From a phage: 64,000 nt of DNA. The DNA lies in assembly GCA_024572335.1 (NCBI GenBank), contig GCA_024572335.1_3052.1. One strand, given 5' to 3'. Shown here piece by piece: positions 19,187 to 23,521 of this stretch. A program made the translations under genes and the position numbers. Below the pieces are notes generated by a model that was given only the letters and a program-made list of their open reading frames with translations, had not been told where the DNA came from and made no database searches. Each line of letters starts with the position of its first letter. Within the stretch, counting starts at the first letter, position 1.

Positions 19187-19768
19187 CTAACCGAGCTTTT
19201 TAGTTAATTCGTTCCAGTGTTTTCTACACAAAGAAACATAAATTTCATCACCAATACAGATTTGATTACCTTCTTTAACTGGTGTTCCATCTTCCATTAA
19301 TCGAGCTGTCATAATCGCTTTTTTACCACAATGACAAACTGCCTTTAGTTCAATAAGTTTATCTGCAATCGCTAAAAGTTCTTTAGAACCTTCAAACAAT
19401 TTTCCAGCGAAATCAGTCCTTAATCCATAAGCCATAACAGGAACATTATATGTATCAACAATTCGGCTCAATTGATGCACTTGTTCAGTTTTTAAAAACT
19501 GAGCTTCATCTACAAATACACAATGAATATCTTTTTGTGCTTCAGCCCATTTATAGAACTCGAAAATATCCATATCATCTGTAATAATATTCGCTTCCTG
19601 CTTAATTCCAATGCGAGAAACAACTTCACAGACAGAATCGCGAGTATCAATAGCAGGCTTAAGAACTAATACACCCATTCCACGTTCTTTATAATTATGT
19701 GCAGCAGTCAAAAGAGAAGCAGATTTTCCAGCATTCATTGCTGCATAAGTAAAAATTAAACTCGCCAT
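19187..19768 (-). CDS. tk: thymidine kinase
   Basis: 193 aa; P-loop YAAMNAGKS, C-terminal zinc-binding CxxC...CxxH typical of type II thymidine kinases. Confidence 0.9.
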   Translation of the reverse strand: MASLIFTYAAMNAGKSASLLTAAHNYKERGMGVLVLKPAIDTRDSVCEVVSRIGIKQEANIITDDMDIFEFYKWAEAQKDIHCVFVDEAQFLKTEQVHQLSRIVDTYNVPVMAYGLRTDFAGKLFEGSKELLAIADKLIELKAVCHCGKKAIMTARLMEDGTPVKEGNQICIGDEIYVSLCRKHWNELTKKLG

Positions 19769-19777
19769 ATCACCTTC

Positions 19778-19963
19778 TTAAAGCGTATTCACATAAGCTA
19801 TTAATTCATTTTCTTTCTTATCAAACCGATCAGCAAATTCTTCCTGCTGTTCGGGAGATAGCGGGCCGTATTCATCATAAAAGGTGTTTGCTTCTGTATG
19901 CTCATCTAGAAGTTCATGGATAAGCTCAAACAATTTATCTTTTTGTTCTTTACTCAGACTCAT
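19778..19963 (-). CDS. hypothetical acidic protein (61 aa)
   Basis: ORF immediately upstream of tk. Confidence 0.45.
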   Translation of the reverse strand: MSLSKEQKDKLFELIHELLDEHTEANTFYDEYGPLSPEQQEEFADRFDKKENELIAYVNTL

Positions 19964-20129
19964 ATATTAATTTCCAGGAGTTTTAAAATAATTCGCTTTT
20001 GCTTAAATATTTCCATAGTTAAATGATCAGTATCTTTTTGACCAATTCCAATGGCAAAACCTTTATTAGCAGCGAGTTCAATTAAATTATCAAGCTCACG
20101 TAACACTTCGTATTGTAACTCAAAACTAT

Positions 20130-20357
20130 TCATTTTGGTTTACCTTCTTTAACGAAATCTGGATAAGGATAAAATCCCGAATAAAATCCTTCACCTTTAT
20201 GATTGATACATCCTTTATTAGAACAATAGCACCAATAATCGAAATCACAAGTCATTTCATCGTTGCATAAAGCAAAAACAACCGGCCACTTACACTTTTC
20301 ACAGTGGGCATTTTTAAGAATGCTAGTTTGGCTCATAACCATGTCACCTTTAAGCAA
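20130..20357 (-). CDS. cysteine-rich small protein (putative metal-binding)
   Basis: multiple CxxC pairs: CEKCKW...CNDEMTCDFDYWCYCSNKGC. Confidence 0.45.
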   Translation of the reverse strand: MLKGDMVMSQTSILKNAHCEKCKWPVVFALCNDEMTCDFDYWCYCSNKGCINHKGEGFYSGFYPYPDFVKEGKPK

Positions 20358-20545
20358 TATTCTTCTACGTGCTGTTTACGACCTTTCTTATCAATAAAGG
20401 TATATTCAACGAATGTTCCAATGTAGTCTTTATCTACATCATGTGGACTATTAATTGGACATTTAGTACGGCAAATGCGTTCCCATTGACGAATAATTAC
20501 TGCTTTGTTTTTAGGATCAAACGGATGCGGGTAATGTACTTTCAT
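20333..20545 (-). CDS. hypothetical protein (70 aa)
   Basis: ORF. Confidence 0.4.
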   Translation of the reverse strand: MKVHYPHPFDPKNKAVIIRQWERICRTKCPINSPHDVDKDYIGTFVEYTFIDKKGRKQHVEEYCLKVTWL

Positions 20546-20996
20546 AATCCACCACTATTAAATCAATATCAGGAGTAAACATGTCAATTAATTTAGAAAC
20601 CTTATCCCAATCGCCGCCAGCGATACCACAACCTATGCGTGGAATGTAAATTACTGGTTTGAACAAAAGGGTTTCTGCCTGTAGATTTAATTCTATCATG
20701 CAGTTTACTAAAGCACCATAATCAAGATTAGGACCTGGTTCGTATTGCGTATACAGGTTATAGCATATACCAAATCCCGTAGGACTATGTTTAAAAACAA
20801 TAGACATATCGCCTAATTTATCACGAGAACCGTACTCAGTAGTGGTTTTATCTATTTCTAAAATTTTGGGATAGGCTCTTGCTAATTGACCCGCTACACC
20901 TGAACCCATAGTATGAAAACAATTGCACCCGTGCGCAATAATATTACCTTGAAGAAATAGGGCGACAATATCGCCCTTGATATATTTTACAATCAT
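20517..20996 (-). CDS. macro-domain-like protein (putative ADP-ribose binding/processing)
   Basis: KGDIV...NIIAHGCNCFHTMGSGVAGQLARAYP and C-terminal IPRIGCGIAGGDW resemble macro-domain signatures (GDIT...NAAN..GGGV..AI and G-x-G-x-G). Confidence 0.5.
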   Translation of the reverse strand: MIVKYIKGDIVALFLQGNIIAHGCNCFHTMGSGVAGQLARAYPKILEIDKTTTEYGSRDKLGDMSIVFKHSPTGFGICYNLYTQYEPGPNLDYGALVNCMIELNLQAETLLFKPVIYIPRIGCGIAGGDWDKVSKLIDMFTPDIDLIVVDYESTLPASV

Positions 20997-21334
20997 CTAG
21001 TACTCAATCCTCGATTATAAGAATCTACCAAACGGTCAACCATTGAATGACAAGCGGCTTTATCTTTCTCCTCCGCAACTGAACATTCTAAGGTATTCCA
21101 CTTTTTAGCATATCGTTTTAACAATGTATCATTTTTGTATCTGCTTGATTTATCTCTTTCTCCGTCTTTATATGCATATATTAATTTCTGCGCAAATTCA
21201 GCTTGGCATGCTTTATTTTTCCCGCAATAATCCGCTGCAGTACGGTTTACATACTCTCTAATTTCAGTATATGATGTATCTGCTAACGCAGAAAATGAAA
21301 TTAATCCTATACATAAAACCAAAATTTTAGTCAT
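20993..21334 (-). CDS. secreted cysteine-containing small protein (signal peptide)
   Basis: N-terminal signal peptide MTKILVLCIGLISFSALA; 4 Cys. Confidence 0.45.
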   Translation of the reverse strand: MTKILVLCIGLISFSALADTSYTEIREYVNRTAADYCGKNKACQAEFAQKLIYAYKDGERDKSSRYKNDTLLKRYAKKWNTLECSVAEEKDKAACHSMVDRLVDSYNRGLSTR

Positions 21335-21872
21335 TTACTATTTCCAAAAGTTTATTATTTTTAAGGTAATTAGCCTTTTCTAGGACTTCAGAAGCATATT
21401 TAGAACCTGCTTTAACATTCCATCCCGAATTATAAGAGGATATTGCTTTTCTTATATCGCCCTTATGTATATTTAACCAATAAGAAAGTTCAATGTACGC
21501 CCAGGAAGCTGAATTGGACCGTTTATTCAACATTCTTTTTATTTCAGCATCGGTCATATTATAACCAAGTTCCTTAACTCTTGCTCGCATAGTAGGCAAA
21601 TAATTTTGGAACATTCCATAAGCGTGATGCTTTGGTTTAGATTTTAAATTAACTCCGCCAGAGCTTTCTTGCCATAAAATAGCAGCCATTATATGACCTA
21701 ATCCGCTCTTGTGGATATTTTTGTGTGTTTTATATTTTCCATCCTTAGAAAATTGTTCCCCGAATTGATACGCGTAACGCATGTTATCGAGTTGGACATT
21801 ACTGAAAGTATGCTCGGAGCTATGTGCCATCATTGAAATGGCCAATAGACCAGCGAGTAGTGCTTTTCTCAT
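21327..21872 (-). CDS. secreted lytic transglycosylase (SLT domain)
   Basis: signal peptide MRKALLAGLLAISMMAHS; SLT motifs QESSGG, YGMFQ, SYNSG. Confidence 0.65.
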   Translation of the reverse strand: MRKALLAGLLAISMMAHSSEHTFSNVQLDNMRYAYQFGEQFSKDGKYKTHKNIHKSGLGHIMAAILWQESSGGVNLKSKPKHHAYGMFQNYLPTMRARVKELGYNMTDAEIKRMLNKRSNSASWAYIELSYWLNIHKGDIRKAISSYNSGWNVKAGSKYASEVLEKANYLKNNKLLEIVND

Positions 21873-21879
21873 GCTTACC

Positions 21880-22341
21880 TCATTGAGTTTTAATTACTGC
21901 TTTAGAAGCCTTTCCTGGTAAACGACGACTGTTGATAATTGCCATCCTACATTGAAGTGACGGGTCTTTGAACTTCGCATTAGGTTTACAAACTGTAAAT
22001 CCAAGCCAAAGATTTCCATTTGTGATTTCTAAACGTCCAGGACGGTATTCAACCCCATCAATAAAATCCTCGTCAATGTCAGGACGCGGAGGCATACTCA
22101 GGAATTCATTAACTTCTAAAACATGGTCTTTTATTTTATGGAATAATTCAAAAACGTATGTCTCATCAATCTCCCGTTGAATTGCACGATCAAGAAGATG
22201 TTGAGAATATTTTAGATGAAACGATGAGACTCCTTCTGCTTTTGATGCTTCACGAATCTCATTGTTAATTTGACGAAACTCCGACTCAAAGTGACGACGA
22301 AGCTTATTTCGACGGATAAAAACTTCTGTATTGATAGTCAT
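21880..22341 (-). CDS. regB: site-specific endoribonuclease RegB
   Basis: 153 aa; sequence matches recollection of T4 RegB (MTINTEVFIRRNKLRRHFESEF...); early promoter at 22369-22398. Confidence 0.8.
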   Translation of the reverse strand: MTINTEVFIRRNKLRRHFESEFRQINNEIREASKAEGVSSFHLKYSQHLLDRAIQREIDETYVFELFHKIKDHVLEVNEFLSMPPRPDIDEDFIDGVEYRPGRLEITNGNLWLGFTVCKPNAKFKDPSLQCRMAIINSRRLPGKASKAVIKTQ

Positions 22342-22368: not shown

Positions 22369-22398
22369 ATTATACCACAGTCAAGAGGAAAAGTAAAC
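22369..22398 (-). promoter_or_regulatory. early promoter upstream of regB
   Basis: GTTTAC (22393-22398) - 18 bp - TATAAT (22369-22374). Confidence 0.6.
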
Positions 22399-22400
22399 AG

Positions 22401-22679
22401 TTATTCTTTAAATCTAATCAATTTATTCATAGACTTTGAAACTTCTGCACGAACCTCATGTAAGTTTTTAAGCTGTTCAAGACGCTGCTCATAGTAAGCA
22501 ATTTCATCTTCTTCGAGACAGTCCTGTGAATCTTCTTTAAGATAACGTGCATAGTCCTGAAAAGCTTTACGGACTACTTCCTGAAAGTCATCAAGACTTT
22601 GAATTTTCTTAGGAGCGGCAGATACACGACGAGGTGCAGTATAATACTCATAACCAAACCCTGCACTTAATTGAGCCAT
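22401..22679 (-). CDS. hypothetical helical protein (92 aa from MAQLSAG)
   Basis: probable start at internal ATG abutting upstream ORF stop. Confidence 0.4.
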
Positions 22680-22981
22680 TAGTATTTTTCCTCTGGTTGG
22701 AACACTGCACGACAAGCCCACATACTGGCTTCTTTGAGTTTCGTTTTAGCAATAGTTAACTGATCGAGGCTTTCAGCATAATTCTTCGCGAGTTCATAGT
22801 CTTCACAGCTATTAAATGCTTCCCAAAATTCATCGTATAAAGCATCAAAGATAAGTCCTAAACGAACTTCAGCGTCTTTGATAGCATTCACTTTACCGAT
22901 TTTCTCTTCAGTATGCGGCTTATAACTTTTAATGTCTTCAATCATATTTGACTTCCTCACCAGTACATAAATCATATTCAA
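22679..22981 (-). CDS. hypothetical protein (88-100 aa)
   Basis: ORF; true start may be MIEDIK at 22945. Confidence 0.4.
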
Positions 22982-23159
22982 CTAAACGAATAGGTTCATG
23001 AATGCCATATCCTTGAACAGAAATTTCTGTCGTAGGATAAATTCCATCAATATCACCCATATTCCAGGCTTCGTTAAATTGCTGTTCGCCTGAATTACTA
23101 AACCACTCGGCGAAAGCATTTAGCACATCTTTAGAACCTTCAATAATTATCTTTGCCAT
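22938..23159 (-). CDS. hypothetical protein (73 aa)
   Basis: ORF, ATGA-type overlap with the GrcA-like gene. Confidence 0.4.
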   Translation of the reverse strand: MAKIIIEGSKDVLNAFAEWFSNSGEQQFNEAWNMGDIDGIYPTTEISVQGYGIHEPIRLVEYDLCTGEEVKYD

Positions 23160-23521
23160 TACAAACTCTCAGTAAAGGTACGAGCGATAACGTCGCGCTG
23201 CTGTTCCGGAGTCAGAGAGTTAAAGCGAACTGCATATCCGGATACACGGATGGTCAGCTGCGGATATTTTTCCGGATGCTTAACTGCATCTTCCAGAGTT
23301 TCGCGACGCAGAACGTTAACGTTCAGGTGTTGACCACCTTCAATTTTAACTGTAGGCTGTTGCTCAATTTCAATTTCACGGGCATGCAAACCGTAGAAAA
23401 TTTCTGGGTCTACAAAAGAGTCCTCTTTAAAGGTTTTGGAGACAATAATTCGTGCTTGAATACCATCTTCAAAATAAATAGTACCTTTATGTGTGCCTTC
23501 AAGAATTTGATATGCTTTCAT
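23159..23521 (-). CDS. autonomous glycyl radical cofactor (GrcA/YfiD-like)
   Basis: C-terminal ~60 aa [60 protein letters not shown] carries the RVSGY glycyl-radical signature, as in E. coli GrcA. Confidence 0.85.

Follow-up and report, generated by a model that had tools for sequence, protein, structure and literature searches.

We found that the open reading frame (ORF) at positions 20517..20996 on the minus strand of the 64,000-nt stretch of phage DNA analysed here (hereafter, the window) is tk.4/adfM of a T4-like phage, the positional orthologue of T4 tk.4, and that its product is a macrodomain. In our preferred reading, to which we assign a probability of roughly 0.7, the protein is expressed early and removes ADP-ribosyl-thymidine made by DarT2 from phage DNA in a Gln84-dependent manner. 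The macrodomain nature of tk.4 and the anti-DarTG2 role of T4 tk.4 are already known. Beyond the existing annotation, our analysis brings out an invariant glutamine, Gln84, at the position of the catalytic lysine, as well as a dimorphism of the tk.4 allele.

To locate the gene, we used the ORF listing, in which tk.4 starts with ATG and encodes a single-domain protein of 159 aa. The ORF is real and lies on the minus strand, which the initial annotation had left unspecified; the motifs quoted there (KGDIV, NIIAHGCNCFHTMGSGVAGQL, YP and IPRIGCGIAGGDW) are all present verbatim in the translation. The placement in a "tk-regB accessory region" was likewise borne out, with tk (19187-19768) downstream and regB (21880-22341; Pfam REGB_T4 match, 5e-68) upstream, both on the same strand as the ORF. 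The stop codon of vs and the start codon of tk.4 overlap in an ATGA at 20993..20996 (-) (context ACTAGATGATTG), as they do in T4, and translation of the two genes is probably coupled. The 3′ end of tk.4 overlaps the start of tk.3 out of frame over 29 nt (20517..20545, minus strand, from the ORF coordinates). The window belongs to a Tequatrovirus, a T4-like phage: the 4 kb around the ORF are 98-98.5% identical to many Tequatrovirus genomes (MLF4, REP1, BASEL phages), and the first 25 kb are ~96% identical to REP2/REP3 and AugustSocin. GenBank already contains a 100%-identical protein from phage PBM-1, and the product names given there to near-identical copies are 'phosphatase', 'RNase III inhibitor', 'Macro domain protein' and 'hypothetical protein'.

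We then assessed the fold and class of the protein. The Pfam Macro profile PF01661 scored 32 bits, above its curated gathering threshold of 22 (E 1.3e-7), and was covered from position 2 to 117 of 118. The ORF also matched PHROG 335 at 1.2e-71, a family that carries the label 'phosphatase'. A direct sequence search of the PDB with the ORF retrieved BT1257, Poa1p, SCO6735, Mtb DarG (5M3I) and TARG1. With a family profile built from 48 sequences, the PDB matches were BT1257 (2e-19), TARG1 (7e-17), SCO6735 (1e-15), Poa1p (3e-14) and DarG (4e-11 and 8e-9), with ALC1 also among the top matches; coronavirus Mac1 reached only 3.5e-3 with this profile and ranked lower by structure. The AlphaFold2 model, for which the family alignment served as input, has a mean pLDDT of 94.3 and a pTM of 0.89. 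When it was compared with the PDB by Foldseek, TARG1, Poa1p, BT1257 and DarG were matched with a probability of 1.00, TARG1 and Poa1p being the best matches, and ALC1 was found as well. TM scores to solved macrodomains were 0.65-0.83, and the model shows the three-layer alpha/beta/alpha macro fold. In the PADLOC and NCBIfam searches, DarG models were the sole matches. A different fold was looked for in the profile and structure searches; none appeared, and solved macrodomains were the top matches. The sequence profile, the predicted fold and the conserved glycine-rich loops thus confirm the macro-domain assignment made in the initial annotation; the resemblance is much too strong to be due to chance. 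Since the nearest neighbours in both sequence and structure belong to the ALC1-like class, we classify the protein as a stand-alone macrodomain of this class (TARG1, DarG, SCO6735, Poa1p) and not of the MacroD, PARG or viral Mac1 type.

The gene order in T4 (NC_000866) is regB, vs.1, vs, tk.4, tk.3, tk.2, tk.1, tk. The part from regB to tk.3 is common to the window, T4, T2 and T6, and the ORF sits, just as its counterparts do in these three phages and in Dhakavirus VR5, between vs and tk.3. The window protein and T4 Tk.4 are 58% identical over 155 aa (E 1e-70). Orthologues of tk.4 had been assigned to A1pp/macro in print by 2006 (PMC1524935), and the T4 RefSeq note on Tk.4 reads 'phosphatase; contains A1pp phosphatase motif'. 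In a November 2025 preprint, a T4 transposon library was grown on DarTG2-expressing E. coli (HIDEN-SEQ), and tk.4 was the single significant hit; a clean T4 tk.4 knockout was sensitised to DarTG2, the gene was dispensable on plain K-12, and it was renamed adfM, for anti-DarT factor Macrodomain (bioRxiv 10.1101/2025.11.20.689424). On the basis of these genetics, the authors of the preprint proposed that T4 AdfM removes ADP-ribose from DNA (bioRxiv 10.1101/2025.11.20.689424). In addition, T2 and T4 without adfA and adfN are still DarTG2-resistant (PMC11825919), which fits tk.4 as a DarTG2-resistance factor. The suggestion in the initial annotation that a phage macrodomain could reverse defence-imposed ADP-ribosylation therefore matches what has been reported genetically for the T4 orthologue (bioRxiv 10.1101/2025.11.20.689424). 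The other activity suggested there, degradation of signalling nucleotides, found no support.

Next, we analyzed the conservation of the active-site residues. At E ≤ 1e-30 a search for relatives found 1,193 clusters, and at E ≤ 1e-10 it found 9,289, counted in both cases as 50%-identity representatives; conservation was counted over 259 aligned family members drawn from this search. Loop 1 of the ADP-ribose pocket, HGCNCFHTMGSGVA, is encoded by codons 22-35 (20892..20933, minus strand). It contains His22 (conserved in 251/259 sequences) and Asn25 (257/259), followed by C26 (256/259), G33 (258/259) and A35 (259/259). The glycine-rich loop 2, i.e. the diphosphate-binding loop PRIGCGIAGGDW, is encoded by codons 119-130 (20607..20642, minus strand); here P119, G122 and G124 are each conserved in 257/259, W130 in 252/259, G127 in 245/259 and G128 in 237/259. 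Loss of the glycine loops in homologues was looked for, and each of the loop glycines is retained by 237-258 of the 259 members. The window sequence of loop 2, IGCGIAGGDW, is the family consensus. In all, 15 invariant columns are common to the window protein and T4 Tk.4 and hold across the 259 sequences.

The residue at the catalytic position sets the family apart from the lysine-type enzymes. Gln84 lies at the end of an NLYTQ motif (codons 80-84, 20745..20759, minus strand) and is present in 259/259 family members. By HMMER and by two MAFFT alignments, its column is that of the catalytic lysine of TARG1 (K84), DarG (K80) and PhiKZ AdfM (K78). T4 Tk.4 also has a glutamine in this column, and so do SCO6735 (Gln85) and BT1257. 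The window residues H22 and N25 align with H24 and N27 of SCO6735, N25 also aligns with N22 of DarG, and A126 occupies the column of TARG1 D125. Three further residues are invariants of the Tk.4 family that are absent from DarG, TARG1, SCO6735 and BT1257: D49 (259/259; codon at 20848-20850), K60 (K/R in 254/259; 20815-20817) and Y82 (259/259; 20749-20751), all on the minus strand. For these comparisons, we checked the macrodomain sequences of Mtb and Taq DarG against PDB 5M3I and 5M31, took those of SCO6735 and BT1257 from PDB alignments and translated PhiKZ gp104 from its paper. The window protein is acidic, with a pI of 5.0 compared to 9.5 for SCO6735. However, net charge is uninformative on DNA binding, and the acidic pI is weak evidence, since PhiKZ AdfM is just as acidic and does act on DNA.

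We compared the protein with characterized macrodomains to see which of them it resembles. T4 Tk.4/AdfM shares with it the slot between vs and tk.3, the length class (155 vs 159 aa), a full-length identity of 58% and the residues H22, N25, D49, K60, Y82 and Q84; 42% of residues differ, four of them in loop 2. SCO6735 (PDB 5E3B) and BT1257 (PDB 2FG1/2AFC) belong to the same ALC1-like class, have a glutamine in place of the catalytic lysine and share the H-x-C-N motif of loop 1 and PRIGCGLAGGxW in loop 2, although they are only 26-27% identical to the window protein and are basic. Q84, H22 and N25 of the window protein correspond to Gln85, His24 and Asn27 of SCO6735, which places it with the glutamine-type enzymes. 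SCO6735 cleaves thymidine-linked ADP-ribose on single-stranded DNA and rescues cells from DarT; its Q85A and Q85E variants have no activity, and a water-mediated mechanism was proposed (PMC9411070). The resemblance has its limits: the DNA-positioning residues K34 and K89 of SCO6735 are not conserved in the window protein, where position 32 is a serine, and the loop after Q84 is shorter by 6-7 residues than the long mobile loop of SCO6735.

DarG (PDB 5M3I, 5M31/5M3E) shares with the window protein the fold, the class, the asparagine N22 (window N25) and presumably the substrate, ADP-ribosyl-thymidine in single-stranded DNA. The two are 20-23% identical, and where the DarG of Mtb and that of Taq have K80, the window protein has Gln84. 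We considered whether tk.4 could be a captured DarG and rejected this. The NCBIfam model NF048014 scores 27.7 bits against a 250-bit cut-off and is matched only over positions 2-142 of 338; the 159-aa protein has no C-terminal DarT-binding domain and carries Gln for K80, and its gene has vs and tk.3 as neighbours and no adjacent darT. A bacterial relative from Pelagimonas with 40% identity, beside which a DarT was looked for, is a solitary gene among housekeeping genes and was uninformative on the origin. The T4-type AdfM family probably works like DarG, yet it is not a DarG.

A second phage protein, PhiKZ gp104, was independently named AdfM and counters DarTG2 (Cell Rep 2026, PMC13309987). 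It removes ADP-ribose from DarT2-modified DNA in vitro and is imported into the phage nucleus (PMC13309987). Like the window protein it is a phage-encoded stand-alone macrodomain, but it is of the DarG-type lineage with N23/K78 (FPTKDNW); the two are about 22% identical (BLASTP E 0.001, hhalign probability 96.5%). The name AdfM has thus been given to two macrodomain lineages, T4 Tk.4 of the Gln type and PhiKZ gp104 of the Lys type. TARG1/OARD1 (PDB 4J5S) and Poa1p (PDB 6LFQ-6LFU) are of the same class as the window protein and have similar loops. The biological substrate of TARG1 is protein Glu-ADP-ribose, and its catalytic dyad K84/D125 is Q84/A126 in the window protein. The biological substrate of Poa1p is Appr-1''-p; of the residues altered in its mutant structures, H23 is kept (H22), S30 is conservatively replaced (T29) and F152 is lost (A126).

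A comparison of the window with T4 at the DNA level revealed that tk.4 is dimorphic among T4-like coliphages, with a window-type and a T4-type allele. While the flanking vs and tk.3 are 97-100% identical to T4, the body of tk.4 shows only 33-60% DNA identity, from about codon 16 to the stop codon. The divergent segment has sharp boundaries, one near codon 16 and the other where tk.3 begins, which point to recombination; the 48-nt 5′ segment of tk.4 is identical between both alleles. At the 3′ junction there is a 13-nt gap relative to T4, in which tk.4 and tk.3 overlap by just ATGA (4 nt). As a consequence, the window allele has 4 additional residues and the 29-nt overlap with tk.3. At ≥90% DNA identity, the window-type allele was found in about 285 phage records and the T4-type allele in about 224. 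Since the T4 type is the one present in T2, T4 and T6, all experiments to date concern that allele. The loop 2 substitutions from window to T4 are C123A, A126G, G127K and D129N, so that T4 loop 2 (IGAGIGKGNW) departs from the family consensus whereas the window sequence matches it. All family-invariant residues are retained in both alleles. Because these invariants are kept and loop 2 is the consensus, the window allele is expected from its sequence to be active.

The 48-nt segment common to both alleles contains an 8-bp perfect GC-rich hairpin, AGGGCGAUAUUGUCGCCCU, at 20959-20977 (readable on both strands), which lies inside codons 7-14 of tk.4 and is terminator-like. It is conserved in T4 and, with a change in the loop, in Dhakavirus VR5, and is lost in a Klebsiella Jiaodavirus. 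The fold z-score of the region was only -0.8, which is not significant.

Taken together, we propose the following mechanism. The gene would be transcribed early with regB, vs.1 and vs, as suggested by the tight gene packing and the vs/tk.4 overlap. The two glycine-rich loops, HGCNC..MGSGVA and PRIGCGIAGGDW, would bind the ADP-ribose moiety, and the protein would hydrolyse the ADP-ribose-thymidine bond set by the host DarT2 on single-stranded phage DNA, so that the phage genome would stay replicable in DarTG2 cells. Because the catalytic position is the invariant Gln84, lysine catalysis as in DarG and TARG1 is impossible, and the chemistry would most likely follow a Gln84-dependent, water-mediated route of the SCO6735 type. 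By analogy with SCO6735 and T4 AdfM, we infer the DNA-thymidine substrate, this chemistry and the same job for the window allele. DarTG2 resistance would accordingly be a function of the window-type allele too, by the same analogy.

Several other activities have to be weighed against this proposal. The protein could hydrolyse small molecules, as a Poa1p-like ADP-ribose-1''-phosphate phosphatase or an O-acetyl-ADP-ribose deacetylase, and thereby clear side products that arise in RNA repair or NAD metabolism, or degrade ADP-ribose-derived immune signals. Many macrodomains have side activities on small molecules of the Appr-1''-p/O-acetyl-ADP-ribose type. Poa1p is a strong neighbour by sequence and structure, shares the H-x-C-N-C motif, has in H23, mutated in 6lfs, the counterpart of H22, and aligns its S30 with T29, a conservative change. 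The 'phosphatase' labels of T4 RefSeq and PHROG 335 say the same, but they were transferred from domain names and not from assays, and Poa1p F152 is replaced by Ala126. Moreover, the sole known phenotype of an orthologue is sensitivity to DarTG2, a DNA-modification defence, and no KptA/2H RNA-repair partner is adjacent to tk.4 in the window. We therefore regard a small-molecule substrate as quite unlikely. It appears to us similarly improbable that the ADP-ribose is taken off proteins or RNA instead of DNA. Such an activity would tune or reverse the marks of the phage enzymes Alt, ModA and ModB, or undo those of host toxins, e.g. the mRNA ADP-ribosylation of the CmdT type. T-even phages have three ADP-ribosyltransferases, the close neighbours TARG1 and SCO6735 also de-modify proteins, and enzymes of the ALC1-like class are reported to overlap in their nucleic-acid and protein substrates. 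On the other hand, tk.4 came up in the T4 screen specifically with DarTG2, the gene being dispensable on plain K-12, and the Lys/Asp dyad with which TARG1 acts on Glu/Asp-linked protein ADP-ribose is replaced by Q84/A126.

The dimorphism itself raises the question of whether the window-type allele has diverged in function. The 42% protein divergence confined to tk.4 could reflect a change of specificity, towards another DarT variant or ADP-ribosyl linkage, or a shift from hydrolysis to binding and blocking of the toxin; even when catalytically dead, SCO6735 inhibits DarT through interaction (PMC9411070). The confinement of the divergence to the gene body between flanks of 97-100% identity, the high frequency of both alleles (about 285 vs 224 records) and the changes at loop 2 residues 123, 126, 127 and 129 are in line with such a divergence. 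However, all family-invariant residues are kept in both alleles, and the accessory regions of T-even phages commonly show mosaic replacement of alleles. As the tk.1-tk.2 stretch next to tk.4 is no less mosaic, the pattern needs no functional explanation, and we consider functional divergence of the window-type allele very doubtful. A wider proposal, also unlikely in our view, is that the Tk.4 family forms a third branch of DNA-ADP-ribose erasers with a mechanism of its own, in which Gln84 may act together with the family-specific D49, K60 and Y82, and that the two alleles, which circulate at similar frequency, differ in specificity; their targets may be, for instance, different DarT2 variants, RNA or other ADP-ribosylated bases. 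In that case, the dimorphism would be the trace of an arms race still under way and not neutral mosaicism. We favor the Gln84-dependent removal of ADP-ribosyl-thymidine from phage DNA.

Finally, we examined the expression context and the neighbouring genes. From regB to tk, the genes follow one another so closely that stop and start codons overlap or abut. Upstream of regB there is a promoter-like site, TTTACT-17-TATAAT with a TG (extended -10), at 22369..22397 (-), which matches the consensus at 10/12 positions and may drive the regB-vs.1-vs-tk.4 run. A scan for sigma-70-like sites counted no more of them in the region than in shuffled sequence, and the regB site is therefore only suggestive. 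The tk.3 product matches DUF7202 (8e-39). Between tk.3 and a tk.2-like ORF, two small ORFs lie at 19960-20336 (-): one of 68 aa matches Phage_zn_bind (PF23895, 1.9e-29), and one of 57 aa has no family match. The pair is absent from T4 and present in T2 and T6 (RB32ORF111c/110c). No tk.1 homologue was found in the window. The vs.1 homologue (21327-21872, minus strand) has an SLT transglycosylase domain (1.4e-5) and the vs.6 homologue (23159-23521, minus strand) a glycyl-radical (GrcA-like) domain (2.5e-18), both in agreement with the T4 annotation. In the vs.4 slot, an 88-aa ORF at 22679-22945 (-) matches Pfam Acb2_Tad1_hairpin (2e-19) and is a homologue of the anti-CBASS cyclic-nucleotide sponge Acb2, located about 1.7 kb upstream of tk.4. 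With the Acb2 homologue and tk.4, the regB-tk stretch probably contains at least two counter-defence genes.

For the window, the chief value of these results is a correct annotation: the GenBank labels 'phosphatase', 'RNase III inhibitor' and 'hypothetical protein' can be replaced by 'AdfM-like macrodomain, probable DNA ADP-ribosylglycohydrolase'. For specialists, it is relevant that the two AdfM proteins, of T4 and PhiKZ, differ in lineage and in the residue at the catalytic position, Gln vs Lys, and that roughly half of the sequenced T4-like coliphages carry an allele just 58% identical to the experimentally studied T4 type. DarTG2, a toxin-antitoxin system of wide distribution, defends cells by ADP-ribosylating phage DNA, and tk.4 is a counter-defence factor that explains the resistance of T-even phages to it.
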